This document shows positions 14,470 to 64,000 of a stretch of 64,000 nt of DNA, piece by piece. Location of the stretch: assembly GCA_013112715.1 (NCBI GenBank), contig JABFGB010000024.1, forward strand, positions 16,896-80,895, given 5' to 3'. The stretch is from Chloroflexota bacterium. Lineage in GTDB: Bacteria > Chloroflexota > Anaerolineae > Aggregatilineales > J027. How positions within the stretch are numbered: position 1 is the first letter of the stretch; every line of letters begins with the position of its first letter. Under the pieces are notes generated by a model. It did not search any database. It was not told where the DNA came from and saw only the letters and a program-made list of their open reading frames with translations. A program made the position numbers and the translations under genes.

Positions 14470-15939
14470 TTAATATGCCTTCGCAAAATAGGCCATACGT
14501 TGGGCTGGCTGACCCGTCACAATATCCGGCCCAGTTTGACCGGGGTAGGGCTGCTCAAGCGGGAAGCAGCGGCTCACGGCTTGATTATCGGCTTTGATTT
14601 TTTCTTCAGTTTCTTTATCGCCCGCGAACCATGTTAATGCCCAACGGCCCGATGCAATCACCTCGCGGAATTGGTCGTAATTGCCGACGACCTCAACCAA
14701 ATTGGCATCGCGGAATTCGGTAGCCTGACGCAGCATGTTGTGATGAATTTCAGTCAAAAGGTCGCTAACACGGGTGGCTAATCCCTCTTGGCTGACAAAC
14801 TGCTTGCCCTCTTTGCCGGGGACATCCCGCCGCGCCAATGCCACTGACCCTTTTTCGACATCTTTTGGCCCGATTTCGATACGTACCGGGACACCGCGCA
14901 TTTCCCAATCATTATATTTGAAGCCGGGGGAGAGATTTTCACGGCGGTCTACAGTCACACGCAGACCAGCGACCACCAATGATTGCTGCACACGATCCAC
15001 CACAGGCGAGACCAATGCTTTTTCATCGTCGTTTTTGAAAATCGGCACAATGACCGCCTGAATTGGGGCGAGGCGGGGCGGCATCCGCAAGCCTTTGTCG
15101 TCGCCGTGTGTCATGATAATCGCGCCGATCATGCGGGTGCTCATGCCCCATGAGGTCGTCCAGCAATACTGCCACTCGTTGTTGACATCGGTGTATTGGA
15201 TGTTGAAGGCTTTGGCGAAATTCTGACCGAGATTGTGGCTCGTGCCCGATTGCAGGGCCTTGCCGTCCCCCATCATGCCTTCGATGGAATAGCTGTGCAA
15301 CGCTCCGGCGAATTTTTCCTGATTGGATTTTTGCCCGCGAATGACTGGGATGGCGGCTTCATTGACAGCGAAATCGGTGTAGACATCCAACATCTGGATG
15401 GTTTCGGCCTCGGCGTCTTCATAGGTCGCGTGGGCGGTGTGACCTTCCTGCCATAAAAATTCGGCGGTGCGGAGGAAAGGACGAGTGCGTTTTTCCCAGC
15501 GGACGACATTGGCCCATTGATTCAGCAGCATTGGCAGGTCACGATAGGATTGAATCCAGCGGGACATGGCCTCACCGATAATCGTTTCACTGGTGGGGCG
15601 TATAACATAGGGTTCAGCTAACTGTTCGCCGCCACCATGTGTCACCACCGCTAATTCTGGCGAAAATCCTTCAACATGCTCCGCCTCTTTGGTGAGAAAG
15701 CTGAGGGGGATAAACAGCGGGAAATAGGCATTTTGATGACCTGTCGCCTTAAAACGTTTATCAAGGCCAGCACGAATCCCTTCCCATAATTCATAACCAT
15801 AGGGCTTGATAATCATACAGCCCCGCACCGGGGTTTTGTCGGGGGCATCCACCAAATCGGCGCGGACTACAATTTCGTTATACCACGCGGAAAAATCTTC
15901 GCTGCGTGGCGTGACTGCTAGATTTGCCAATGCAAACAC
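14470..15939 (-). CDS. proS: Proline--tRNA ligase (archaeal/eukaryote-like class II type)
   Basis: FSAWYNEIVVRADL, IRPTSETIIG, VVRWE, FLWQEGHTAH, and the C-terminal YFAKAY ending typical of the ProRS form lacking the insertion domain. Non-ATG start. Confidence 0.9.
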   Translation of the reverse strand: MFALANLAVTPRSEDFSAWYNEIVVRADLVDAPDKTPVRGCMIIKPYGYELWEGIRAGLDKRFKATGHQNAYFPLFIPLSFLTKEAEHVEGFSPELAVVTHGGGEQLAEPYVIRPTSETIIGEAMSRWIQSYRDLPMLLNQWANVVRWEKRTRPFLRTAEFLWQEGHTAHATYEDAEAETIQMLDVYTDFAVNEAAIPVIRGQKSNQEKFAGALHSYSIEGMMGDGKALQSGTSHNLGQNFAKAFNIQYTDVNNEWQYCWTTSWGMSTRMIGAIIMTHGDDKGLRMPPRLAPIQAVIVPIFKNDDEKALVSPVVDRVQQSLVVAGLRVTVDRRENLSPGFKYNDWEMRGVPVRIEIGPKDVEKGSVALARRDVPGKEGKQFVSQEGLATRVSDLLTEIHHNMLRQATEFRDANLVEVVGNYDQFREVIASGRWALTWFAGDKETEEKIKADNQAVSRCFPLEQPYPGQTGPDIVTGQPAQRMAYFAKAY

Positions 15940-48874: not shown

Positions 48875-49200
48875 TATCAACTGAATAGCAATTTTCCAAA
48901 GACGTTGAACCGGAAGAGTATGTCCGAACGCGATGTGCAGAGAGCCGCCAGTTGGGTGTGAAGGCGGTACAGAGGCGCGGATTGAATGGGCCGGGGAGTT
49001 GTGTGGGCGAAAATATCATCAGTAGCCCCCATCGGAGCAGCCACCGTTATCAAGGCGAAGGGTCTCGGCAGTACCAGAGCATTACCAAAAACGCTGCCCG
49101 CACCTGAATTTAAGTGAGACACAGCGTTCTGGCGTTGGTCTAAGCCGGGTGGCACCACGGGAGCCTTCTCTCGCCCTGACGATTGAGGAGGCTCTTTTTG
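48875..49200 (+). promoter_or_regulatory. T-box riboswitch leader, tryptophan-specific (UGG specifier)
   Basis: Stem I elements: AGAGUA (48915..48920), the AGAGAG bulge (48939..48944), and the distal loop GUUGGGUGUGAA. GAA-UGG-G places UGG at 48987..48989 in the specifier position. The T-box sequence is GGGUGGCACCACGGGAG (49147..49163). The terminator pairs GAGCCUUCUC (49161..49170) with GAGGAGGCUC (49185..49194), followed by UUUUU. Confidence 0.85.
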
Positions 49201-49236
49201 ATTTCCCAATCTTGTGGTGTTTGCTCGGAGGAGACT

Positions 49237-50706
49237 ATGCTGCGAATTGCCCCTGACACAACGTCCCGTTTGCTGCCCAAGCCAGAGGACATGCCCGCCC
49301 TATTTGAACGTGGCGATCTTGTCCCGGTCTATCGTGTTTTACCCGCCGATCTTGAAACCCCCGTCTCGGCTTTTTTGAAATTATTCCGCGCCGATGAACC
49401 CGCCTTCTTGCTTGAAAGTGTGCAGGGTGGCGAGCAGGTCGGACGCTATTCGTTTATCGGCGTTGGCCCACGTAAAGTATTGGCTCCTGATACCAGCCCC
49501 GGCGGTGATGCCCTTGCCGAAATCAAAGCCGAACTCGCCAATTATCACCCGGTTGCGCTCCCCGGTTTGCCACGTTTTGTCGGTGGGGCGGTGGGCTTTT
49601 TGGGTTATGACGTGGTGGGTCAATTTGAACGTCTGCCTGCCAACGCTCCCGATGTGACCAACCTCCCCGGCGCGTTGTTCATGATTTTTGACTCTATCGT
49701 CATCGTGGATCATGTCAAATCGCAGATTATCGTATTGTCCAATGCTCATAACACCGGCGACCCTGATGCTGCCTATGCCGATGCTGCGGATCGTATCGCC
49801 GCCATTGTGGAACGTCTGCGCCAACCGCTTGGCGAAATCCCAATGGCGACCAGCGTATTGGATGACCCACTGGTTTCCAATTTTACACAGGCGGGTTTTG
49901 AGGAAGGCGTGCGCCGCGCCAAAGAATATATCGCCGCCGGGGATGCCTTCCAGATTGTGTTGTCCCAACGGCTGACCTGCCAAACCAGTGCCCCGCCATT
50001 TACCATCTACCGCGCCTTGCGGATGCTCAATCCCGCGCCCTACATGTACTTCTTCCATTTCCCGGATGAAAACTTCAATGTCGTCGGTGCATCCCCCGAA
50101 ATGATGGTACGTTTAGAAGACGGCATTGCCAGCGTGCGCCCCATCGCCGGAACCCGTCCACGTGGCGCGACGCCCGAAGAAGATGCCGAATTGGAAGCCA
50201 GTTTGCTGACCGACCCCAAAGAACGCGCCGAACATGTCATGCTGGTGGATTTGGGGCGCAACGACTTGGGCCGCGTCTGTGAATATGGCTCGGTGCATGT
50301 GCCGGAACTGATGACTATCGAAAAATATTCGCGGGTCATGCACATCGTTTCGCATGTTGAGGGCAAATTACGCGAGGGGCTAGACGCCTTCGATTTGTTA
50401 CGGGCGACCTTCCCGGCAGGCACGGTCAGCGGCGCACCCAAGATTCGGGCGATGGAGATCATTGACGAATTAGAGCCGGATCGTCGTGGGCCATATGCGG
50501 GTGCGGTGGGGTATTTCAGCTTCAACGGCTCAATGGATACCTGTATCACCATCCGCACCATCACCATGCGTGGCGATCAAATTTTCCTACAGGTCGGTGC
50601 TGGCTTGGTTGCCGACAGCGACCCCGCCACCGAATTCCAAGAAACCCTTCACAAGGGCAGTGCCTTAGCTTCCGCCATCCGTATGGCTGAACGCGGTTTT
50701 GAATAA
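49237..50706 (+). CDS. trpE: Anthranilate synthase component I
   Basis: [75 protein letters not shown], and [20 protein letters not shown] before the ATG at 49237. The track start at 49183 would lie inside the terminator. Confidence 0.93.
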
Positions 50707-50726: not shown

Positions 50727-51293
50727 ATGATTCTGGTCATTGATAACTACGACAGCTTTACCTACAACCTCGTGCAATTGTTGGGTAGCCTCGGCGCGGA
50801 TTTACAAGTGATTCGCAATGATGCCCTGACGCCCCAAGAAGTATCCGCCCTTAACCCCAGTCGGATTGTCATTTCTCCCGGCCCCGGGGATCCGAACGAT
50901 GGGGGGATTTCGTTAGAAGTCATCAGTCAATTGGGCCAGCATATCCCGATTTTTGGTGTCTGTTTGGGCCATCAATGTATCGGTCAAGCCTATGGCGGAC
51001 GGGTTATTCGTGCGCCACGATTGATGCACGGCAAAACCTCGCAGATTTACCATCGCAATCAGAAGTTGTTTACGGGCGTGCCGAGTCCGTTTGTCGCCAC
51101 CCGCTATCACAGCCTGATTGTCGAAGAACCCCTACCCGATTGCCTGAGTGTGACGGCTTTCACCGAGGAGGGCGAAGTGATGGCCTTGCGTCACAAAGAG
51201 TATCCGGTGGTTGGCGTCCAATTCCACCCCGAAAGCATTTTGACGACGTATGGGGTGCGGATTTTGCAGAATTTTTTGGAGGGTCGGTTGTAG
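50727..51293 (+). CDS. trpG: Anthranilate synthase component II (glutamine amidotransferase)
   Basis: [54 protein letters not shown]. Confidence 0.92.
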
Positions 51294-51715
51294 GCGGCAA
51301 ACCTCCTCTAAATATTATCGAATCATAAGTTAAGAATCATAGGTGGATGTGTAATGGGGGCATATGGGATGATGTGAAACGGTATGCATTTGTCAAGTGG
51401 TGTCATCGGTTATGGAGGAGGGTTATATTTGACCGTTAGGCGGGCGGGATTTTGGGTATCATAAGGGATTGGCCCGCATTCAGGTACATCTCAACCCTAG
51501 TATACTCCGGCAGTTTTTGGGCTATACATTCGATGGAGGAGTGCTGGGAGGGGTGTGACAAAAATGGGAAGCGCATGAAACGGCCAAAGCTGAAACCGCA
51601 CTTCCCAAATCACTGCCATTTCCCTCCCTTCAACAACGCTTTATTTAAGGCTTTTCCTTGCACTGAGCCATAGATATTTTGTGCAGGTTGGACAAAAAAA
51701 CAGAATTTAAATGAG

Positions 51716-51745
51716 TTGACGAATCGTGGGTGTCCGTGTTATGCT
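51716..51745 (+). promoter_or_regulatory. Candidate promoter of the aro leader
   Basis: TTGACG (51716..51721), an 18-nt spacer, then TATGCT (51740..51745). Confidence 0.5.
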
Positions 51746-51777
51746 GCTATCACTAACCAAAACACAAGGGTTTTATT

Positions 51778-51900
51778 GTGACCAATACCCGTTCGTTCTC
51801 GATTCCCACTGCCTACAGTGCGTCCTACGATGCAACTGTCAGCTTTTACTTTTATTATTACTTTGGGAACAGCACGGAGCGACGGGAACAACGCATGTAG
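51778..51900 (+). CDS. Candidate attenuation leader peptide, 40 codons, Phe/Tyr-rich ((M)TNTRSFSIPTAYSASYDATVSFYFYYYFGNSTERREQRM)
   Basis: GTG start 7 nt after AAGGG (51766..51770). The codons TTT TAC TTT TAT TAT TAC TTT occupy 51844..51864, and 10 of 40 residues are F or Y. The TAG stop is at 51898..51900, directly upstream of a terminator hairpin and of aroH-aroF-tyrA-aroA. It is too short for the ORF track. Confidence 0.6.
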   Translation: MTNTRSFSIPTAYSASYDATVSFYFYYYFGNSTERREQRM

Positions 51901-51937
51901 CGACGATTAGCCGCTACAAACGAGAGCAGCGACCACA

Positions 51938-51973
51938 GGCGCGGGGTTCCCAAAAGGGACTCCGGGCCTTTTT
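51938..51973 (+). terminator. Attenuator terminator (GC-rich hairpin followed by T5)
   Basis: GGCGCGGGGTTCCC (51938..51951) pairs with GGGACTCCGGGCC (51956..51968). That gives 12 pairs with one bulge and one mismatch, around an AAAA loop, followed by TTTTT (51969..51973). An alternative pairing joins GGGAACAACGC (51884..51894, inside the leader ORF end) to GCGGGGTTCCC (51941..51951). Confidence 0.65.
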
Positions 51974-52062
51974 CGTTTTAAGGCCTGTTTTCGTAAGTGG
52001 GTCACAAAAAACCTTGTGGGGAATGATGAATCAGCAACCACAAGGAGATAAACCGGATACTC

Positions 52063-52512
52063 ATGACCAATACACCCACCGAACCTGCGTGGCAGCCCAA
52101 AATGTGCCGGGGCATTCGTGGCGCAACCACCGTCGAGGAGAACACCCGCGAAGCCATTTTGGAGGCGACCCGCGAATTACTAATTTTGATGATTAAGCAT
52201 AATGGCATTGTCCCAGATGATGTCGCCAGTGTGATTTTTACGACGACGATGGATTTAAACGCCGAATATCCGGCGGTGGCGGCGCGGCAGTTGGGTTGGC
52301 ACGATGCGGCCCTGATGTGCGCCCATGAGATGGCTGTCCCGCATGGCCTCAAAATGTGTTTGCGGATTTTGATTATGTGGAACACGACCCTTTCCGCCCA
52401 CGAAATCCACCATGTCTATATCAATGGGGCGAAACATTTACGGCCTGACCGTTCAATTGAAATAAAAGATTTGACTGAGGTGCTGGCGGAGGAACTGACC
52501 GCCAAAAGTTAG
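52063..52512 (+). CDS. aroH: Chorismate mutase, AroH type
   Basis: CRGIRGATTVEENTREAILEATRELL...VASVIFTTTMDLNAEYPAVAAR...VPHGLKMCLRILIMWNT. This matches the monofunctional AroH family. The start may instead be the ATG at 52102. Confidence 0.88.
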   Translation: MTNTPTEPAWQPKMCRGIRGATTVEENTREAILEATRELLILMIKHNGIVPDDVASVIFTTTMDLNAEYPAVAARQLGWHDAALMCAHEMAVPHGLKMCLRILIMWNTTLSAHEIHHVYINGAKHLRPDRSIEIKDLTEVLAEELTAKS

Positions 52513-52570
52513 AACCTGATTTTTGCTAGGAAAAAATATTCAACCACCATACCGATAGGGAGAGTTTGCA

Positions 52571-53617
52571 ATGATCGTAGTCATGTCTAGTGCCGCAACC
52601 GCCCGTGAAATCTCTGAAGTGATTGCCCGTATCCGTGCGATGGGGTATGAAGTCCACCTCTCGGAAGGCAAAGAGCGCACCATTATCGGCATCATTGGTC
52701 GGGGCCGTCCGGTTGATCGTGACCAACTTGGTGTCATGTCCGGTGTTCAAGATGTCATCCCTGTTTCCCACCCCTACAAAATTGCCAGCCGCGAATATCA
52801 TCCCGACGATACCCAAGTGCCTCTCAATGGCATCAATGTGGGTGGCCCGGATTTAGCCATCATCGCTGGTCCGTGCTCAGTGGAAGGCCGCAGTGAAATT
52901 ATTGAAATCGCTCATATCGTGCGCGAAGCTGGGGCGACGGCCTTACGGGGTGGGGCGTTCAAGCCACGTACCTCACCCTACGCTTTTCAGGGGCTAGGCG
53001 AGGAAGGGCTGCGTTATCTCGCGGAGGCGCGTGAACAAACGGGACTGCCGATTGTCACCGAGGTCATGGACCCCGCGCTTGTGCCACTGGTCTGCCAATA
53101 TGCCGATGTGCTGCAAATTGGCGCCCGCAATATGCAAAATTACGCCCTGCTCAACGCCGTTGGGGAGAGCCAATTCCCCGTTTTGCTCAAGCGCGGGATG
53201 AGTAGCACCATTGAAGAACTCCTCATGGCTGCCGAATATATCCTCAGTCATGGCAATATGCGGGTCATGCTGTGTGAACGGGGTATCCGTACCTATGAAA
53301 CCGCCACGCGCAACACCTTTGACATCAACGCCATTCCCGTCCTCAAGCACTTGTCGCACTTACCTGTCATCGCTGACCCTAGTCATGGTACGGGTAAATG
53401 GGAATATGTCGAAAGCGTATCCCTAGCGGCAGTCGCGGCGGGTGCAGACGGCCTCATTTTGGAGGTGCATCAAGACCCCGACCACGCGGCCTCGGATGGT
53501 CGCCAATCACTGCGGCCTGATAAATTTGCGCAATTGGTGCAAAAAGCAGGGCGTCTGGCTGAAGTGGTCGGCAAGCAGGTACATGAACCGATTCCTGCCC
53601 CGGTTCCATCACACTAA
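52571..53617 (+). CDS. aroF: 3-deoxy-7-phosphoheptulonate (DAHP) synthase, type I-beta with N-terminal ACT/ferredoxin-like domain
   Basis: N-terminal regulatory-type domain ([33 protein letters not shown]). Catalytic core [48 protein letters not shown]. Confidence 0.9.
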
Positions 53618-53629
53618 ATTTGAATTTTT

Positions 53630-53652
53630 GGGTGAGTCACCACGACTCGCCC
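53630..53652 (+). other. Intercistronic hairpin between aroF and tyrA
   Basis: GGGTGAGTC (53630..53638) pairs with GACTCGCCC (53644..53652), 9 bp including one G-U, around an ACCAC loop. No T-tract follows, so it is probably not a terminator. Confidence 0.35.
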
Positions 53653-53672
53653 CTACCATTGTTGAGGCATGA

Positions 53673-54548
53673 ATGTCTGATAACGCGATTGATGGGTTTA
53701 CTGTACATATTATTGGTTTAGGGCTGATGGGTGGGTCGTTAGCGATGGCCCTGCGCGGTCATGTTCAGTGTATCACTGCCCAAGATGCCAACCCTGCCAA
53801 TTTGGAATCGGCTTTACAAGCAGGAGTGATTGATGGGGTTGGGGGGCTAGATCAAGCTGACATTGTGATTTTAGCCGTCCCCTCTGACCGCATCCCCCAA
53901 TTGATTCACCAGTTTTGCACCGCTGGTCAGTTGAAAAAAGGGGCATTGATTATGGACATCGGCAGCACCAAAGGCCGTATTTGTGACACGCTGGACACCT
54001 TGCCCAATACCGTTGCGGCCATTGGGGGGCATCCCATGTGTGGTTTGGCGGAGAATGGCTATCGCAATGCCATCCCTACCCTGTACAGAGGGGCACGTTT
54101 TGTCCTTTGTGAAACAGTATTAACCACCCCTGCCACCCGTGCCGTTGCCGAAAGTTTGGTAACAGCCATTGGGGCAAGGCCGCTGTGGATGGATAGGTAT
54201 CGCCACGATGCCCTGACCGCCCTCACCAGCCATTTGCCGCACGTGCTGAGTTTTGCCTTGATGCGCTTGGCGATGGAAGCATCGGCGGAAGATGAGGCCC
54301 TGTTTCAGTTGGCGGCAGGTGGTTTTGACGGCGCGACCCGTTTGGCCCGTACCGAAGAAAACATGATTACAGGCATGTTTACGACCAACGCCGCGCAAAT
54401 CCGCCCTCTCTTGGCCCGCCTCCGCAATCACTTGGATACCCTCGACGCCCTATTTGACCATCCGGATGAACTACGTGAAGAACTTGCGCGGGTAGTTGAG
54501 GCCCGCCGCCTTTACACCAAGACCTATGGAGAACGCCCGATCTCATGA
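53673..54548 (+). CDS. tyrA: Prephenate dehydrogenase
   Basis: Rossmann motif IIGLGLMGGSLA. DIGSTKG. GGHPMCG. Position inside the aromatic cluster. The stop overlaps the aroA start (ATGA at 54545). Confidence 0.85.
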   Translation: MSDNAIDGFTVHIIGLGLMGGSLAMALRGHVQCITAQDANPANLESALQAGVIDGVGGLDQADIVILAVPSDRIPQLIHQFCTAGQLKKGALIMDIGSTKGRICDTLDTLPNTVAAIGGHPMCGLAENGYRNAIPTLYRGARFVLCETVLTTPATRAVAESLVTAIGARPLWMDRYRHDALTALTSHLPHVLSFALMRLAMEASAEDEALFQLAAGGFDGATRLARTEENMITGMFTTNAAQIRPLLARLRNHLDTLDALFDHPDELREELARVVEARRLYTKTYGERPIS

Positions 54549-55870
54549 CCACACATAATTTGACTTCGACCCGCGTGCGTGTTCGCCCCAGTCAAGCTCT
54601 GCGCGGGGTGATTCGTGTGCCGGGGGATAAATCTATTTCGCATCGGGCGCTGATTTTTGGCGCACTGGCAGATGGTGTCAGCGAAATTCGTGGATTTTTA
54701 CCCGCTGGTGATACATTGGCGACTCTCGGCTGTATTCGCGCTTTGGGGGTACAGGTAGATCGCCATGACGACACGACCCTGACCGTATATGGGCGCGGCT
54801 TACGTGGGTTGCGGCAGCCCGACCAACCCCTTGATTGTGTCAATGCGGGCACGGGGATTCGTCTATTGGCAGGCGTAATGGCAGGTCAGCCTTTCCCTAG
54901 TGTGTTGGATGGCAGCGAACAACTGCGCCGCCGTCCCATGAAACGCATCACCGAGCCGTTACGTTTGATGGGTGCCAATGTGGAAGAAAATGAAGGCCGC
55001 GCCCCACTACATTTTGGTGGGGCCTATCTCAAGGGCATCACGTATGAAATGCCCGTCGCCAGTGCCCAAGTCAAAAGTTGTTTGCTACTGGCGGGGTTAT
55101 TTGCCGATAGCCCGACCACGATTGTTGAACCCGGCCCGGCGCGTGACCACACTGAGGGCATGTTGCGGGCGATGGGGGCGGATATTCGCAAAGCGGGCAA
55201 CCGCGTGACGATTACCCCGGTTGAGCGCCTGCATCCGCTTAATTGGACAATTCCCGCCGATATTTCATCCGCCGCGTTCCCGTTAGTAGCAGGTTTACTG
55301 GTGGATGGCGCGGAGGTGGTCATTGAAGGGGTAGGGGTCAATGATACCCGCACGGGCATTTTAGATGCGTTGGCGATGATGGGTGCAGTGGTGCATCAAT
55401 CGAATGTTCATGAGGAAGGTGGTGAACCCGTCGCCGATTTGTTGGTGCGTTCCACCCCATTGCACGGGACAAACATCAAAGGTGATCTGGTCGTGCGTAT
55501 GATTGACGAGTTCCCGATTTTGATGGTTGCGGCCCTCCATGCTAACGGCATCACTGAAGTCAGTGAGGCGCGAGAACTGCGCGTTAAAGAAACAGATCGT
55601 ATCGCGGTTATGGCAGCCGAATTACGCAAACTTGGTGCGGTGATTGAAGAACACCCCGACGGGTTTGTGATCGAAGGCCCACAGCGGTTACAAGGTGCGG
55701 TGGTGGATGGGCATGACGATCATCGGGTCGCCATGAGCCTGACTATCGCCGGACTGTTGGCCGAAGGCGAAACGATTGTCGAGGATGCCCGCTGCGCCCA
55801 TGATTCGTTCCCCGGTTTTGTGGAAACCATGCAATCATTAGGCGCAGGGGTAGAATGGTTGCCTGATTAG
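54545..55870 (+). CDS. aroA: 3-phosphoshikimate 1-carboxyvinyltransferase (EPSP synthase)
   Basis: VPGDKSISHRALIFGALA, NAGTGIRLLAG, LRRRPMKRI, and SAQVKSCLLLAG. Also LRVKETDRIA and DDHRVAMS. Confidence 0.93.
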   Translation: MTTHNLTSTRVRVRPSQALRGVIRVPGDKSISHRALIFGALADGVSEIRGFLPAGDTLATLGCIRALGVQVDRHDDTTLTVYGRGLRGLRQPDQPLDCVNAGTGIRLLAGVMAGQPFPSVLDGSEQLRRRPMKRITEPLRLMGANVEENEGRAPLHFGGAYLKGITYEMPVASAQVKSCLLLAGLFADSPTTIVEPGPARDHTEGMLRAMGADIRKAGNRVTITPVERLHPLNWTIPADISSAAFPLVAGLLVDGAEVVIEGVGVNDTRTGILDALAMMGAVVHQSNVHEEGGEPVADLLVRSTPLHGTNIKGDLVVRMIDEFPILMVAALHANGITEVSEARELRVKETDRIAVMAAELRKLGAVIEEHPDGFVIEGPQRLQGAVVDGHDDHRVAMSLTIAGLLAEGETIVEDARCAHDSFPGFVETMQSLGAGVEWLPD

Positions 55871-55873
55871 CCT

Positions 55874-58108
55874 TTATTGTTGGTCAGGTGTTTGTGGCAA
55901 ATAGAGCGGTGCATAATCCGTTGTATTTGAGACGGGCAGCCGAAAACTGCTTGTCCAGACAGGCGGCGCAGGAGGGGGTGTGGTTGCTAACCTCCCACGC
56001 CAATCATCATCGGTTAGGCGCACGGGGGGATACCCTAGCTCAATGAATTCATAATAGGTAAAGGTCGGGCCGACGTACATAGTATTTACTTCGTCGGTAT
56101 TGCCCACAATCATCGTGGTAGAAACTGGCCCCGTGCCAATATGCAAAACACCGGGGGGCAGTAGGTCAGGGATTTCGGGGTCGTGGTTGATGTTGGTGTG
56201 GACATCGGCAATTAACGCCGGGGAATCGTCTTCCCACGGGAAAAGTTCCATATACCAACCGTTCCATTCCCATGGATCCACCCCACAGATTTGTTGTTCG
56301 CGGTATTGCCGGACGACAATGCTCCGCAGAAAAAGATCTTCGTCTTCGGTAAATTGCTCAAGGCGAAGTTCTTTTTCGGCGAGGGTTTGTAATTGGGTCG
56401 CTGTGTTTTCGAGATTGCTAAAGTAGGTTAATGCGGTTTCTAAGGTGTGTTGTTCGTTTTCAAGATCGTAGCCACTCAACACATTGTCGGATGAGGGGAT
56501 TTGCTCAAATAGGCTACGACCCGCCCGCGCATAATCGGCAACAGCGGCATAGAAGGCGGGATAGGGTTCAACATAGCCTGTTGGATACTGGCAGGCAACA
56601 CCCATAGTGGTAACAGATTGTTTGACATACAGGATGTTGTCATGCCGGAGTTGCGCCCAAGAAGCCAATTGCGTGTGCAGCATTTTATCGGCCCATGCGG
56701 GGGTTTGCATCGAATCCGCATAAAAACCATTGTCACTGACCGGGTTGTTGAGGGTACGCAACATGGTTAACCAGCGATTATAGAAGCTGCTGCCCCAAAA
56801 ATCGCTATCGGTTGCCGCAACTTGGGTGCGAGCGGCCTCTAAGGGATTCTGATAACCATATAGGGCAAGTTCATCGGTCAGATGGGTCATGGCTTGATTA
56901 TTGCCAAGTGCATACATCACATCCAATGTGTTAGGGTAGGGTCGTAGAATTTGTTGGTCATCATCGGTATAGAGGCGGTCAAATACAAGGTTACTCATGA
57001 TCTCAGAATCAATTGCGTAGCGTGATCCCAAGAGCATCAATGTAACGGGTTGTGGGACAGCTTCGTTTCTGTTGAGATAGGCCCACGTAATTTGACCGGA
57101 GATACGCTGCCAACCGTAATCAGTGGTCGTGAGCATGGTTAACAAGTGGTCGGGGTCGGAATAGTTGAGCACATCGGCGGCGCTATTTAACCCCGCATCG
57201 CTCATAAACCGCTCCAGATCATCAAGGGTCATGTTATCACTTTGGCCCACAAAGGCCGTGAGAAGGGTGTCAATCGCGTCCCAATTGGAGCGTTGTTGAG
57301 CATCTTGAATAGTCTGGCGTAGTAATAGAGCGCTTGCTAGGGCTTCCAAATTAAGCGTTGGGAAGGCTGTCTCTGGGTCAAAGCTCACCATACGGAAGTC
57401 TATCTGGGCTAACCATGTCATTGCACGGAAATACAGGCCCAAATAGTAATCTTCTGTATAATGTCCGCGTGGTTTAAAGAGAGTAAAATCAATTTCTCTT
57501 TCGACCCCGAACAGGTCTATTTTTTCCACGCCAGCGGCCTCGGTTGCCATTGCGTGATAGCGATTCACACTGGGGTCAGGAGCAGTGTCATTCAGCAACA
57601 ATAGAGCGGTAGTGAAATAGGTTTCCAAATCAGCATATAGAGGCGTCATAGTAGGGTCTGTATTGGCGTTGGCTTGGGAGTGGAGTTTGACCAAGCAAAG
57701 TTCCAACATTACCCGCAGGCGAGGCATTAGGATGTTGCGTTCCATATTTTGTAGCAAATCATCATAGGTCTCATGCACCGCCTGTAAAATGGAGTCGGTG
57801 GTCACAAGGACAGGTAGGTCTTTCCAATAGATATAAGCGTAGGCGATGGTAAAACTGTAGAAGCCGAGACGATCACTCATCACCACGCCATTTTGCTCTA
57901 ACATCGCAATTTCTTCTGGCGAGAGGGCAAAAGTGCCATTAACAAGATCAAAATATTGGGCTTCACGAGGGTTAAAGCGATTAGGTCGTTGTTCAGGATT
58001 GGCTAAAGCAAATTTTTGCAGATTTGAGGCGGCGAGTGTAAACAGAATGATGAGGATCAACGAAGTGCGCCAACGATTTTTTAACATGGCGTTTTGTCCT
58101 TCACCCAC
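55874..58108 (-). CDS. Large secreted protein, probably DUF3160 family (744 aa)
   Basis: Signal-like N-terminus (WRTSLILIILFTLAASNLQKFALA). FKPRGHYTEDYYLGLYFRAMTWL resembles the DUF3160 core as I remember it. The family call is tentative. It is in opposite orientation inside the aro cluster. Confidence 0.55.
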   Translation of the reverse strand: MGEGQNAMLKNRWRTSLILIILFTLAASNLQKFALANPEQRPNRFNPREAQYFDLVNGTFALSPEEIAMLEQNGVVMSDRLGFYSFTIAYAYIYWKDLPVLVTTDSILQAVHETYDDLLQNMERNILMPRLRVMLELCLVKLHSQANANTDPTMTPLYADLETYFTTALLLLNDTAPDPSVNRYHAMATEAAGVEKIDLFGVEREIDFTLFKPRGHYTEDYYLGLYFRAMTWLAQIDFRMVSFDPETAFPTLNLEALASALLLRQTIQDAQQRSNWDAIDTLLTAFVGQSDNMTLDDLERFMSDAGLNSAADVLNYSDPDHLLTMLTTTDYGWQRISGQITWAYLNRNEAVPQPVTLMLLGSRYAIDSEIMSNLVFDRLYTDDDQQILRPYPNTLDVMYALGNNQAMTHLTDELALYGYQNPLEAARTQVAATDSDFWGSSFYNRWLTMLRTLNNPVSDNGFYADSMQTPAWADKMLHTQLASWAQLRHDNILYVKQSVTTMGVACQYPTGYVEPYPAFYAAVADYARAGRSLFEQIPSSDNVLSGYDLENEQHTLETALTYFSNLENTATQLQTLAEKELRLEQFTEDEDLFLRSIVVRQYREQQICGVDPWEWNGWYMELFPWEDDSPALIADVHTNINHDPEIPDLLPPGVLHIGTGPVSTTMIVGNTDEVNTMYVGPTFTYYEFIELGYPPVRLTDDDWRGRLATTPPPAPPVWTSSFRLPVSNTTDYAPLYLPQTPDQQ

Positions 58109-58179
58109 AGGGGTGTATCGCTGATTTTATTATTACTACTATAGTATACGAATAAGGTTCGATTTTGGGAAAGCTGACC

Positions 58180-59019
58180 ATGAAGCGTATAGGAATCATC
58201 GGCTGGCCTGTTGAACACAGCCTATCGCCTGTCATGCACAACGCGGCGTTTGCGGCGCTTGGCCTATCCGATTGGCATTATGAGCGACTGCCCACACCTA
58301 AAGAAGACCTAGCGACCCGCATCGAAAATTTGATAAAAGAGGGCTTTGTCGGCGCGAATGTCACTGTTCCGCACAAACAAGCCGTGATGCCTTTGCTTAA
58401 TAACATCACATTGGCGGCACGAGGGATTGGCGCGGTCAACACAATTGTGATTGAGGAGGGTCGCACTGAGGGCTATAATACCGACAGCCCCGGCTTTATG
58501 CTCGATCTTGCCGCGCAGGGAGTTGAGGTGGCGGGCAAACGGGCACTCGTGTTGGGGGCAGGGGGTTCGGCTCATGCGGTGGTGTTAGGACTCGCCAATG
58601 GTGGGGCGCATGTCATGGTGGTCGCTCGGCGCGACAATGCAGCATGGGAATTGCGCAATGCTGTGCGGCGAGGGGTCTCAAAACAGCTTGAAATTGAGGT
58701 ACAGCCCCTATCGGCTCTCGCTAAAGTCGCGCCTACTGTTGATCTAATCGTCAATACGACCCCCGTCGGCATGTGGCCCAACGTGGAAGAGTCACCGTGG
58801 CCCGACCAAGTGCCAATTCCAAGCGGGGTGGTCATTTATGATCTAATTTATCGCCCCATGCAAACCAAGTTTATGCAGCAGGCCGAAGCCGCTGGCGCAC
58901 GGGCAATTGGCGGCTTGGGGATGCTGGTCTATCAAGGTGCAGCCGCTTTTGAATTATGGACGAGCCAACAAGCCCCGGCGGATGTCATGCGAGCGGCGGC
59001 CCTCGAAGCACTGAAATAG
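58180..59019 (+). CDS. aroE: Shikimate dehydrogenase
   Basis: IGWPVEHSLSPVMHNAAF, GANVTVPHKQ, GAVNTI, GYNTD, VLGAGGSAHAV, NTTPVGM. ATG at 58180. Confidence 0.92.
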   Translation: MKRIGIIGWPVEHSLSPVMHNAAFAALGLSDWHYERLPTPKEDLATRIENLIKEGFVGANVTVPHKQAVMPLLNNITLAARGIGAVNTIVIEEGRTEGYNTDSPGFMLDLAAQGVEVAGKRALVLGAGGSAHAVVLGLANGGAHVMVVARRDNAAWELRNAVRRGVSKQLEIEVQPLSALAKVAPTVDLIVNTTPVGMWPNVEESPWPDQVPIPSGVVIYDLIYRPMQTKFMQQAEAAGARAIGGLGMLVYQGAAAFELWTSQQAPADVMRAAALEALK

Positions 59020-59083: not shown

Positions 59084-59821
59084 ATGGCCCGTATCACCCG
59101 TGATGATGTCATTGCAATTTTGAAACGTGACCGTGATCTCACTGGCCTCAACCTCTCGATGCTCAAACTGAATGGGCTAGATATGACTGAGGCCAATTTA
59201 ACTGAAGCGAACTTATTCTATTGTGACTTATCCAACACCAATCTCACGGGTGCGATTATGCAAAACGCCAATTTAATGAACGCCCGTTTGCCCGAAGCCA
59301 AGATGGATTATGCCTATCTTGCGGGAGCCAAGCTCAACCATGCCCGTCTCTATCGTACCTCATTGGTTCAGGCGATTTTTCAGGTGGCGGTGTTGGATTA
59401 TTGCAATCTTACCCATGCCCGTTTGACCGGGGCGGATTTCACCCGCGCCCGCATGGATAGCTGTTATTTGATTGGGGTGGATTTGTCAGGGGGGTGTCTG
59501 CGGGAGGCTTCATTGGTGTCCGCCAACCTCACCGACTCAATATTGGCACAGGTAGATGGTGAGGCCGTGAATCTTCAGGGCGCTAACCTGACCAAAGCAC
59601 GTTGTGAGCGCAGCTATTTTGTCGGGGCGATTTTGGCGGATGCGAACCTAACGAATACGAATTTTGTGGAGGCTGATTTGTCGGCGGCGACGCTTTCACG
59701 GGCAACGATTGAGGAGACAGATTTCAGTTATGCCAACCTTAGTATTGCCCGCTTTACCGACGCCAAACTCCGCAGTCCTAACTTTACTGGCGCAACGATG
59801 GATGGTGTAGAAGGTTTATGA
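59084..59821 (+). CDS. Pentapeptide-repeat protein (245 aa)
   Basis: Continuous A(D/N)LXX-type repeats (EANLTEANLFYCDLSNTNLTGAIMQNANLMNARL...GANLTKARCERSYFVGAILADANLTNTNFVEADLSAATLS). The stop overlaps the aroC start (ATGA at 59818). Confidence 0.85.
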   Translation: MARITRDDVIAILKRDRDLTGLNLSMLKLNGLDMTEANLTEANLFYCDLSNTNLTGAIMQNANLMNARLPEAKMDYAYLAGAKLNHARLYRTSLVQAIFQVAVLDYCNLTHARLTGADFTRARMDSCYLIGVDLSGGCLREASLVSANLTDSILAQVDGEAVNLQGANLTKARCERSYFVGAILADANLTNTNFVEADLSAATLSRATIEETDFSYANLSIARFTDAKLRSPNFTGATMDGVEGL

Positions 59822-60993
59822 TTCGATTTTTGACAGCGGGGGAAAGTCATGGCCCGCTTTTAACCGGAATTTTGGAGGGGATGCCCGCTGGATTGTCCCT
59901 TACACAAGAACAACTCAATCTCGATCTCGCCCGTCGCCAGCAGGGATATGGCAGCGGCGGCAGAATGCAAATCGAGCGCGACGAGGTACGCATCACAGGC
60001 GGGGTGATGGCGGGCAAAACGACAGGTGGCCCGATTAGCCTGATTATCGAAAACCGCGATTGGAAAAATTGGGCGGAAAAAGACATCCCCCCCATGACCA
60101 CGCCCCGTCCGGGTCACGCCGACCTGACAGGCACACTCAAATATGGCTATGATGATTTACGCATTGCGCTGGAACGTTCTAGTGCGCGGGAGACCGCCGT
60201 GCGAGTGGCGGTTGGGGCGATTTGCAAACGCCTCTTGGGTGAATTTGGCATCATAATTGGCGGCTATGTCACCGAGATTGGCGGGGTGGTTGCGGATTTA
60301 CCCGAACCACCGGATTATCCTGCCCGTTTTGCCGCCGCCGAGGAATCTGATGTGCGCTGCCCTGACCCGGTTGCTTCGGAAGGGATTCGGGAAGCCATCC
60401 GTCAATGCAAAATTGATAAGGATACGCTCGGCGGGGTGATTGAAGTGGTCGCCCTGCATCTGCCCCCCGGCTTAGGCTCGCATGTCCATTATGATCGCCG
60501 CCTCAGTGGTCGTTTGGTCGGCGCGGTGTGCAGTGTGCAGAGCATTAAAGGGGCGGAAATCGGCACGGCCTTCGCCAATACCCGCAAACCGGGTACACAA
60601 GTCCACGACCAAATCCTATTGGGTGAAAACGGCAAGCTGACCCGTCAAACCAATCGCTCCGGCGGGCTGGAAGGCGGCATGACCACAGGGGAACCCTTGA
60701 TTGTCCGCGCCGCCATGAAGCCGATTAGCACGACCCTGACCCCACTGGCCTCGGTTAATTTGGCGACGGGTGAACCTGAAGGTACAACCTATGAACGCAG
60801 CGATTTTTGTGCCACACCGCGTGCCGTCCCTGTCATTGAGGCGATGGTAGCGATTGTGCTGGCGGATGCCCTGCTGGAAAAACTGGGAGGCGATTCGCTG
60901 GCGGAAATGCGTCCTCGTTATGATGCGCTCAAGCGCGGTGAATTGAGTGATTTTGCGATGCACAACACGACTTGGCGGTTTGGTTATGTCTGA
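59818..60993 (+). CDS. aroC: Chorismate synthase
   Basis: FLTAGESHGP, GYGSGGRMQIE, RPGHADL, ERSSARETA, SIKGAEIG, NRSGGLEGGMTTGEP. Confidence 0.93.
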   Translation: MIRFLTAGESHGPLLTGILEGMPAGLSLTQEQLNLDLARRQQGYGSGGRMQIERDEVRITGGVMAGKTTGGPISLIIENRDWKNWAEKDIPPMTTPRPGHADLTGTLKYGYDDLRIALERSSARETAVRVAVGAICKRLLGEFGIIIGGYVTEIGGVVADLPEPPDYPARFAAAEESDVRCPDPVASEGIREAIRQCKIDKDTLGGVIEVVALHLPPGLGSHVHYDRRLSGRLVGAVCSVQSIKGAEIGTAFANTRKPGTQVHDQILLGENGKLTRQTNRSGGLEGGMTTGEPLIVRAAMKPISTTLTPLASVNLATGEPEGTTYERSDFCATPRAVPVIEAMVAIVLADALLEKLGGDSLAEMRPRYDALKRGELSDFAMHNTTWRFGYV

Positions 60994-63212: not shown

Positions 63213-64000
63213 ATGCAAATTCGCCGGGATCGTTCCGCGCTTCATTTTGGCCGACGCGCCCGCCGCCGAGGGCCTAGCTGGTTTTTCGGATTTTGGTTTT
63301 TTTCGATGGCCGCCGCCGTATTGGTGATGTGGCAGATGGATCGTGTCCAACCGGAAGTTTTGGCAGTGGTGATGGGGCCACCCACGCCAACTACCGATGC
63401 TGTCACCCTTGCCCAACTCGCTGAAGAAGCCTATTGGCAAGGCGATCTGGATAACAGCATCCTCTATTATTCTCAAGCCTATGAACTGACACCCAACGAT
63501 ATGGGCATTATGTTTGAATACGTGCGGAATCTCGTCTATGGCAGTTATGATGGACGTGGTTTTGTTTTTCGTGCGGAACGTGCCCTCGAAGTTGCCGAAG
63601 AAGCAGTGGGCAATTACCCCAATGACCCACGTGCGCTGGCGGCCTATACATTGGCACTGGTCGCGCGGGATCGGGGTGAAGAAGCCGCCGCCGCCGGGAT
63701 TAAAGCTGTTGACCGTGCGCCGGATTGGGCCGAAGCACGTGCCTATCTTTCGATGGCCTATCGGGAACAAGAGCGCTGGTTAAATGCCCAAGAAACCGGA
63801 CAAAAAGCCGTTGATCTAAACCCAAACAGCGTAGACGCCCGCCGTGCATTGGCATTGGCAATGGCCTTTACCGGGCAATTTGATATTGCTATCGGACAAT
63901 TTGAGCAGGCCATCCAAGCCCACCCGCGTCTCAACGTGCTCTATTTTGAATTAGCGCCCTATTACATTGTCAAAGGCAATTTCGATGCCGCCATCCAAGC
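63213..64000 (+). CDS. TPR repeat protein with N-terminal TM segment (partial, runs off the right edge)
   Basis: My own translation from ATG 63213 begins MQIRRDRSALHFGRRARRRGPSWFFGFWFFSMAAAVLVMW. TPR-like units follow (AEEAYWQGDLDNSILYYSQAYELTPND, AEARAYLSMAYREQERWLNAQETGQKAVDLNPNS). The listed minus-strand ORF 63183..63770 is antisense to this. Confidence 0.7.
   Translation, partial: MQIRRDRSALHFGRRARRRGPSWFFGFWFFSMAAAVLVMWQMDRVQPEVLAVVMGPPTPTTDAVTLAQLAEEAYWQGDLDNSILYYSQAYELTPNDMGIMFEYVRNLVYGSYDGRGFVFRAERALEVAEEAVGNYPNDPRALAAYTLALVARDRGEEAAAAGIKAVDRAPDWAEARAYLSMAYREQERWLNAQETGQKAVDLNPNSVDARRALALAMAFTGQFDIAIGQFEQAIQAHPRLNVLYFELAPYYIVKGNFDAAIQ

Follow-up and report, generated by a model that had tools for sequence, protein, structure and literature searches.

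A candidate ribosome-mediated phenylalanine/tyrosine attenuator upstream of the aroH operon in a Chloroflexota bacterium and its relatives

We analyzed a stretch of 64,000 nucleotides (nt) from a Chloroflexota bacterium (contig JABFGB010000024.1, positions 16,896 to 80,895), hereafter the window, and specifically the RNA leader that precedes an operon for aromatic amino acid biosynthesis in it. With a probability of roughly 0.85, this leader is a ribosome-mediated transcription attenuator that responds to phenylalanine (Phe) and tyrosine (Tyr) and controls aroH, a 3-deoxy-D-arabino-heptulosonate-7-phosphate (DAHP) synthase gene, tyrA and aroA. It represents a candidate RNA/leader-peptide family that belongs to a known class of mechanisms, not a new mechanism. 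We also lean, if cautiously, towards a wider proposal, namely that the element is the local member of an ancient, phylum-wide and uncatalogued family of attenuators, which would govern how flux enters the shikimate pathway (aroH–DAHP synthase), reading alternating Phe and Tyr codons (in several lineages also Trp codons) as an OR gate, and some of which would be leaderless.

The operon occupies positions 52063–55870 of the window. Pfam matches identify its products as an AroH-type chorismate mutase (CM_1; aroH, 52063–52512), a type I DAHP synthase with an FXD domain (52571–53617), a prephenate dehydrogenase (tyrA, 53673–54548) and a 5-enolpyruvylshikimate-3-phosphate (EPSP) synthase (aroA, 54545–55870), in agreement with the first-pass annotation, a reading made from the DNA letters alone. 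The leader and the operon are on the forward strand.

Anatomy of the aro leader

The promoter, ribosome-binding site, short open reading frame (ORF) and terminator that had been proposed at first pass upstream of aroH were all recovered. A sigma-70-type promoter (51716–51745) comprises TTGACG (51716–51721), an 18-nt spacer and TATGCT (51740–51745), and the same site was reported by a promoter scan. The TG directly before TATGCT makes this an extended -10 element (TGtTATGCT, 51737–51745), and transcription would start near 51752. Both TTGAC and the extended -10 element (TGTTATGCT) are kept in relatives with AroH identity as low as 74%. The short ORF has a start codon, GTG (51778–51780), and a ribosome-binding site, the Shine-Dalgarno (SD)-like AAGGG (51766–51770) located 7 nt ahead of it; both are invariant in the five closest sequences, and the GTG start is retained in the metagenome contigs L084 and L086.

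The leader ORF (51778–51900), delineated by its translation and conservation, consists of 40 codons, encodes the peptide VTNTRSFSIPTAYSASYDATVSFYFYYYFGNSTERREQRM and terminates with TAG at 51898–51900. Ten of its 40 residues are Phe or Tyr (F or Y), including seven consecutive ones encoded by TTT TAC TTT TAT TAT TAC TTT (51844–51864; hereafter the F/Y run). These putative regulatory codons match the pathway of the operon enzymes, that is, the leader contains a cluster of codons for the amino acids to whose synthesis the operon contributes. Eleven sense codons separate the F/Y run from the leader stop, and the candidate antiterminator strand is inside this tail. An intrinsic terminator (51937–51973) is located between the leader ORF and the first gene of the operon. 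It is formed by a hairpin at 51937–51969 with the core stem 51942–51950:51956–51964, followed by a U tract at 51969–51973; a terminator scan independently reported a stem at 51942–51964 and then T5, and the extended hairpin has a folding energy of -24.0 kcal/mol.

Windows with at least seven aromatic codons out of eight occur twice in the six frames of the 64-kb window, compared to a mean of 0.02 in composition-preserving shuffles. The second of them (around 63276–63279) is the hydrophobic N-terminal stretch of a long ORF and was rejected as a leader candidate for this reason; an aromatic-rich window at 14593 was rejected as well, being antisense within a gene for a protein of 489 amino acids. 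Another frame across the aro leader is Leu-rich (TTA CTT TTA TTA TTA CTT, in the ORF 51726–52196). It was discarded as an alternative sensing frame, since it has no start after the promoter and reads through the terminator; among the 50 Chloroflexota loci described below, just 7 have this frame open from a start codon to a timely stop.

Alternative RNA structures

The 251-nt leader is more stably folded than dinucleotide shuffles of the same sequence (z = -4.49), and its folds include an antiterminator that competes with the terminator. The 5' strand of the antiterminator, GGGAACAACGC (51884–51894), covers the last five sense codons of the leader ORF, and its partner, GCGGGGTTCCC (51941–51951), belongs to the 5' arm of the terminator, as had been suggested at first pass. 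At 9 of their 11 positions the two strands are complementary, and a 2x2 internal loop interrupts the pairing: GGGAAC (51884–51889) pairs with GUUCCC (51946–51951), and CGC (51892–51894) pairs with GCG (51941–51943). The antiterminator encloses a predicted hairpin, GUAGCG...CGCUAC (51896–51917), which holds the stop codon; in L005, L006 and L084 its stem is retained and its loop is altered or shorter.

If the ribosome is placed on the F/Y run and the 3' arm of the terminator is still untranscribed, the free RNA has its energy minimum (-26.3 kcal/mol) in the antiterminator fold. For the complete RNA, the fold with the terminator (-37.7 kcal/mol) is preferred to that with a forced antiterminator (-32.8 kcal/mol). 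The geometry is that of an attenuator: a distance of 20–40 nt from the F/Y codons places the antiterminator strand beyond a ribosome stalled there, and the strand is located 4–14 nt before the stop codon, within the footprint of a ribosome that has reached it. Thus, the leader has a predicted antiterminator that would exclude the terminator, be free while the ribosome stalls and be covered when it reaches the stop codon, albeit without convincing covariation.

Conservation of the two strands was assessed both in the clade of the window and in the wider set of loci introduced below. GGGAAC and GUUCCC are invariant in all eight sequences of the window's clade. In two of these leaders, L086 and L009, the CCC of GUUCCC falls in the loop of the terminator and is still conserved, as expected if it must pair with GGG. 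Across the family, as long as the 3' arm is untranscribed, the 5' arm of the terminator pairs with a segment that is mostly 0–45 nt upstream of the leader stop. The duplex between the ORF tail and this arm is energetically better than in dinucleotide shuffles (mean z of -1.08; p≤0.05 at 30% of loci), and the number of paired nucleotides in the terminator arm is 9.8 versus 7.2 with shuffled upstream sequences. In the Chloroflexia clade, 83% of the antiterminator positions are paired, compared to 36–56% when the partner strand is slid, and the pairing is kept mainly by G-U wobble. We consider the specific antiterminator pairing plausible and somewhat more probable than not. The terminator itself is well conserved as a structure, with 89% of cells paired and three pairs changed on both sides in the window's clade, and with 95.5% paired and 7 of 14 pairs covarying in the Chloroflexia clade, a result that was not matched by any of 500 shuffles.

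An additional structure (51788–51886) is predicted for the leader that is not being translated. It includes a closing helix, CCCGU:ACGGG (51788–51792:51882–51886), a second helix between UUCCCA (51803–51808) and UGGGAA (51864–51869), and an inner hairpin at 51811–51843. Within the domain closed by these two helices, the F/Y run forms an open internal loop and is therefore single-stranded. Two base pairs of this structure changed on both sides among the five close sequences. The closing helix would engage the GGG that the antiterminator needs for its 5' strand and may for this reason act as an anti-antiterminator, a role for which the support is weak.

Conservation in close relatives

The AroH alignment was scanned against 185,579 species genomes, which resulted in 80 loci. 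Four relatives share the leader DNA at 83–94% identity over a block that corresponds to positions 51673–52060 of the window, and the short ORF, F/Y run, GTG start, SD, promoter and terminator are kept in relatives with 74–99% identical AroH proteins. The check suggested at first pass, whether a short F/Y-rich ORF and a terminator persist in related genomes while the nucleotide sequence drifts, thus has a positive outcome. The proportion of variable or gapped alignment columns is lowest in the spacer between the stop codon and the terminator (5%), the 5' untranslated region (UTR; 6%), the ORF tail (8%), the F/Y run and the promoter (10% each); it is 17% in the terminator and 26% in the part of the ORF upstream of the run, and it reaches 76% in the 37 nt after the terminator. 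The latter segment contains a second hairpin (51963–51970:51980–51987) that had been noted at first pass as overlapping the 3' arm of the terminator. This hairpin is present in the window, but it falls in the most variable segment of the alignment and has been lost by deletion in L006, and we rejected it (51963–51987) as a functional part of the element.

Variation within the leader ORF conforms to its codons. There is an in-frame indel of 3 nt after codon 3, and codons 4–9 are free to vary. Nine changes fall between codon 12 and the end of the run; six of them are synonymous third-position substitutions, and the other three replace Tyr by Phe or Thr by Tyr. L006 has TAT/TAC swaps inside the F/Y run, and the changes in the terminator of L005 preserve pairing. 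The metagenome contigs L084 (82% AroH identity) and L086 (74%) have kept the -35 element, the extended -10 element, the GTG start, the terminator, GGGAAC and GUUCCC; their F/Y runs differ in order or composition (FYFYYFY in L084 and FAFYFYFYFW in L086).

Distribution across Chloroflexota

Of 50 Chloroflexota loci, 43 have an ORF with at least six aromatic codons out of eight within the 450 nt that precede aroH. None of 30 loci from other phyla (Planctomycetota, Desulfobacterota and others) has one, the maximum there being four of eight. The 43 loci span Anaerolineae, an Ardenticatenales-like clade, Caldilineales, Thermoflexales, Chloroflexaceae, Roseiflexaceae and Herpetosiphonaceae. In six of the other seven loci of the phylum, four or five codons out of eight are aromatic and the architecture is the same. 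The only Chloroflexota aroH–DAHP synthase locus without an aromatic-rich ORF upstream (of 4001) belongs to L031, a metagenome-assembled genome (MAG) of Dehalococcoidia; the upstream region looks coding there, so that aroH may sit inside a longer operon.

In all 50 Chloroflexota loci, the F/Y frame opens with a start codon (ATG in 44 of them) and reaches a stop before the hairpin, compared to 16 and 7 of 50 for the other two frames. A strong hairpin (-15 to -31 kcal/mol) starts 17–54 nt after the leader stop across the phylum. A U tract comes after it in 42 of 49 loci, and most Chloroflexaceae have a degenerate tract of the CTCTGTGTTTT type there. The leader peptides vary in length from 20 to about 65 residues and share no sequence between clades outside the aromatic run. 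In all Chloroflexota loci examined, aroH is immediately followed by the DAHP synthase gene, and in some of them tyrA and aroA come next. The amino acids presumably sensed therefore match the pathway throughout the phylum, which extends the fit between codons and operon that was pointed out at first pass for the window.

The aromatic runs of the phylum contain 153 TTT, 27 TTC, 88 TAT, 69 TAC and 14 TGG codons. The first codon position is almost invariably T, the second is T or A and the third is T or C. In several lineages TGG replaces TTY or TAY, for example in the Roseiflexus run YYFWFWYF, indicating that the amino acid class is conserved and not the nucleotides. Trp codons were observed in the runs of L042 (3913–3993), L008, L009, L019, L064, L066, L070 and L086 (e.g., MQSRSTYYFWFWYFASSPRDWLLRVG in Roseiflexus); judging by the codon content of these runs, such lineages may sense Phe, Tyr and Trp alike.

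A covariance model of the family recognizes a single copy in the window (51835–51979, 78 bits) and recovers held-out leaders, and it has no match in 24 non-Chloroflexota aroH loci or in 14 aroE loci. A separate model built from the ORF tail and terminator of Chloroflexia matches leaders of Anaerolineae, the Ardenticatenales-like clade and Caldilineales at the right place.

A distinct promoter arrangement was observed in the Ardenticatenales-like clade (L027, 3738–3778; L016, L017, L025, L036, L041, L058 and L068), where the promoter consists of TTGACG, 17 nt and TATAGT. A distance of 9 nt separates the end of its -10 element from the ATG that opens the F/Y ORF (MLTKPVYFYFYFF...). As judged from this spacing, the sensing ORF of the clade is probably at the 5' end of a leaderless or nearly leaderless mRNA.

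Search against known RNA and peptide families

To our results on the presence of the element we add the outcome of searches for catalogued families. We scanned positions 51300–52300 of the window with cmscan at E≤10 and obtained only three chance-level eukaryotic matches, with no leader family and no T-box among them. This negative is meaningful, because the same Rfam library detects a T-box upstream of trpE with 94.5 bits. No Rfam match at gathering thresholds was obtained for 16 distant loci with an analogous element, either. By these scans, the element is neither a T-box nor one of the amino acid leaders in Rfam (Phe_leader, Trp_leader, His_leader, Leu_leader, Thr_leader, the leu/phe leader and others). 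Five leader peptides from five clades had no NCBIfam or Pfam match at E≤10.

No prior description of such an attenuator in Chloroflexi was found in the literature, the coverage of which did not extend to subscription-only papers. Among the published surveys, one on leader genes treats Chloroflexi as too sparsely sampled and reports no such element (PMC4833913), and another mentions Chloroflexi, is confined to Rfam families and likewise reports none (PMC3766115). Putative tyrA-linked attenuators have been listed in other phyla only (PMC1173090), and a survey of Actinobacteria gives no RNA elements for Phe/Tyr genes (PMC1262725).

Proposed mechanism

In the model that we infer, the leader ORF is translated, ribosomes stall on the F/Y run, and the operon responds to the supply of Phe and Tyr. 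Transcription would start about 26 nt ahead of the GTG-initiated 40-codon ORF. When both Phe and Tyr are ample, the ribosome would pass the seven F/Y codons, reach the TAG at 51898 and cover positions 51884–51894; the terminator (51937–51969 and the U5 tract) would then form, and transcription would end before aroH. When either Phe or Tyr is scarce, so that Phe-tRNA or Tyr-tRNA is in short supply, the ribosome would stall within 51844–51864 and leave 51884–51894 free. This strand could pair with the 5' arm of the terminator (51941–51951) before the 3' arm is made, and the polymerase would read through into the operon. If the leader is not translated, the closing helix (51788–51792:51882–51886) would partly sequester the antiterminator strand, favoring termination. 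The alternation of F and Y codons would provide OR logic, suiting an operon that combines enzymes of the common pathway and of the Tyr branch.

Evaluation of the model and alternative explanations

Several points weigh against this model, beginning with the nature of its evidence base, which is made up of sequence comparison and folding computations. Equilibrium folding with a masked ribosome on the F/Y run produced no switch and always retained the terminator, so that read-through has to be kinetic. Kinetic switching is a property of the classical trp model. Of the ribosome-dependent switch envisaged at first pass, what stands is the antiterminator that forms while the 3' arm is untranscribed; a switch in the masked-ribosome equilibrium folds does not. 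Covariation of the antiterminator is lacking as well: in the Chloroflexia clade, no more than three pairs have changes in both strands, a number that shuffles reach as well, and in the window's clade the strands are invariant. The p-values for pairing of the ORF tail with the terminator arm overstate the independence of the loci, which are phylogenetically related. Over the whole leader ORF, substitutions in close relatives number 4, 10 and 8 at codon positions 1, 2 and 3, respectively, with no third-position bias. This measure is uninformative here, since the N-terminal codons drift at all positions, and the coding signal comes from the F/Y run and its flanks. Translation would have to begin at a GTG codon with a modest SD.

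Two further points concern the breadth of the proposal. The Chloroflexia tail and terminator model does not detect the window's own clade, which therefore represents a divergent subtype, with GGGAAC/GUUCCC where the Chloroflexia type has GCUUCGCG/GGCGYGGAGC; the RNA parts of both subtypes may plausibly descend from one ancestor. The other is a precedent from Corynebacterium glutamicum, where the aroF operon is under attenuation by aroR, a leader peptide with Phe-Tyr-Phe, and is reported to be induced by Phe but not by Tyr limitation (Neshat et al. 2014, J Biotechnol 190:55, via PMC11802643). As aroR, in that account, answers to Phe and not to Tyr, dual sensing by the Chloroflexota leader cannot be assumed.

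Among the alternatives, the one that survives best, although we consider it very improbable, is that the leader ORF is translated but constitutive and aids ribosome loading or reinitiation, the hairpin being a partial terminator or a stabilizing structure. Many bacterial leader genes do lack regulatory codons, and reinitiation has been proposed for them (PMC4833913); in addition, the terminator is retained in the equilibrium folds whatever the position of the ribosome. However, phylum-wide conservation is confined to the run, which encodes the amino acids that the pathway itself makes, and the rest of the peptide drifts. The distance from the leader stop to the aroH start is 160 nt with a strong terminator in between, an arrangement unsuited to reinitiation, and the complementarity between the ORF tail and the 5' arm of the terminator exceeds that of shuffles.

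A second alternative holds that a protein or a tRNA recognizes the U/A-rich run as an RNA motif, in the manner of TRAP, PyrR or a T-box, and that the ORF is incidental. The run is indeed unpaired in the predicted fold, and the same genome has a T-box for trpE 2.6 kb upstream. Against this stand the absence of Rfam matches, T-box included, at E≤10 in the window's leader and of any match in the 16 distant loci, the strict period-3 variation of the run (T; T or A; T or C), the substitution of TGG and GGN codons within the runs, and a frame that always has a start and a stop consistently placed before the terminator. Taken together, these observations make a bound RNA motif still less probable than constitutive translation. 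Least probable of the three is a functional small aromatic-rich peptide (membrane or signaling) that is co-located with the aro operon by chance: an open frame with a start is kept in 50 of 50 loci, but the peptides, which range from 20 to about 65 residues, have no inter-clade conservation outside the run, the five of them that were searched, from five clades, have no Pfam or NCBIfam match, their C-terminal tails follow RNA pairing and not peptide sequence, and the terminator always comes directly after the ORF. Phe/Tyr attenuation of the aroH operon thus remains the preferred interpretation.

Neighboring genes and additional features

The aro leader is preceded by trpE (49183–50706) and trpG (50727–51293). 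A T-box (RF00230) is located directly upstream of trpE–trpG at 48896–49181 on the forward strand and has the specifier UGG (Trp). With a T-box at trpE and a leader peptide at aroH 2.6 kb downstream, the genome mixes both mechanisms.

The region between trpG and the conserved leader block (51294–51672, about 380 nt) is absent from the four close relatives; their trpG–aroH gap is shorter by 320–350 nt in three genomes and by about 250 nt in L007. This region contains neither a Pfam-recognizable ORF nor a repeat that occurs elsewhere in the window. Immediately downstream, at 51679–51695 on the forward strand, TTGTGCAGGTTGGACAA, with an A tract after it, is found about 20–40 nt upstream of the -35 element and has no second copy in the window. 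Three of the four close relatives have it unchanged; L005 and L085 each show one mismatch, and L084 (82% AroH identity) shows two. This sequence may serve as an UP-like element or as the binding site of a further regulator.

Downstream of the terminator, a hairpin formed by CCUUGUGG...CCACAAGG (52012–52046, forward strand, -15.1 kcal/mol) overlaps the aroH Shine-Dalgarno sequence AAGGAG. Its pairing is retained in the four close relatives via G-U pairs and one bulge. The predicted hairpin may be a second, translational control step after read-through, or a structural feature only.

The DAHP synthase (52571–53617, forward strand) has an N-terminal ferredoxin-like FXD domain (PF18152). In Thermotoga maritima, the FXD domain mediates feedback inhibition of DAHP synthase by Tyr and Phe. 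By analogy, the domain and the leader may together subject the first step of the pathway to the same amino acids at two levels.

Two more genes of the pathway, aroE (58180–59019) and the chorismate synthase gene (59818–60993), are found nearby on the forward strand, with a pentapeptide-repeat gene (59084–59821) between them. They are separated from the aroH operon by a DUF3160 gene (55874–58108) on the opposite strand. A potential FYYYYY stretch (TTT TAT TAT TAC TAC TAT) was observed at 58125–58142 on the forward strand, 38 nt upstream of the aroE start at 58180. It was rejected as a leader, as there is an in-frame TGA immediately 5' of it, no start codon and no terminator after it, and no aromatic run was found upstream of aroE in any of 78 metagenome aroE loci. 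Its occurrence is probably fortuitous, the promoter at this place being AT-rich, with the sequence TATAGT.

Implications

If the family is real, it adds a class of regulatory RNA for a large and mostly uncultured phylum, with a covariance model that separates true sites from controls. The window would then illustrate a mixed strategy in one genome, in which a T-box serves the Trp branch and a leader peptide serves the common and the Tyr/Phe parts of the pathway. Classical attenuators mostly sense a single amino acid; the long alternating runs of F and Y (and W) codons would be a natural case of one leader peptide sensing several of them. Functional attenuators need a ribosome close behind the RNA polymerase, and the wide conservation of the element is therefore indirect evidence of coupling in Chloroflexota; if it works as predicted, tight transcription–translation coupling is implied in this phylum. 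On the practical side, the element marks the true 5' end and the regulation of aro operons in MAGs and could serve as a Phe/Tyr-responsive part.

Comparison with known systems

Leader-peptide attenuation is a textbook class of mechanisms, represented by trpL, pheL, pheM and hisL. The closest functional analog of the Chloroflexota leader is aroR of C. glutamicum, which is also a mixed Phe/Tyr leader located before a DAHP synthase operon in a non-proteobacterial lineage, with a ribosome stall proposed to relieve termination. Given this precedent, a mixed Phe/Tyr leader before a DAHP synthase operon is not a new idea. The novelty surmised at first pass is reduced accordingly to Chloroflexota, for which no description was found within the literature coverage given above. 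The two systems differ in the regulatory codons, as aroR is described with the Phe-Tyr-Phe triplet only, whereas the window's leader has seven consecutive F/Y codons and its relatives have up to eight of eight. They also differ in taxonomy, Actinomycetota versus Chloroflexota, and the first gene of the operon in the window encodes an AroH-type chorismate mutase.

The pheL–pheA and pheM–pheST systems of E. coli similarly consist of a short ORF with runs of Phe codons that is followed by alternative antiterminator and terminator structures. Their regulatory codons are for Phe only, or nearly so, and their stop codons come 1–3 codons past the run, compared to 11 sense codons in the window's leader (PMC3082878).

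With E. coli trpL, as described by the Yanofsky model, the leader has in common the 1:2, 2:3 and 3:4 alternatives, an antiterminator that is weaker than the terminator, and the masking of segment 2 by a ribosome at the stop codon. In trpL the regulatory codons are inside segment 1, whereas in the window's leader they are in a large unpaired loop between the strands of the closing helix, and the candidate 1:2 helix of the window's leader is weakly supported.

T-boxes (RF00230) resemble the leader in that they sense tRNA charging and act by antitermination of amino acid genes. They differ in binding the tRNA directly and without translation, and the aro leader has no T-box features. Finally, in mycobacteria, leaderless polycysteine short ORFs attenuate operons (bioRxiv 10.1101/834739). 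The F/Y ORF of one Chloroflexota clade (e.g., in L027) is probably leaderless too, whereas in the window about 26 nt of 5' UTR with an SD precede the leader ORF, and the amino acid sensed by the mycobacterial ORFs is a different one.

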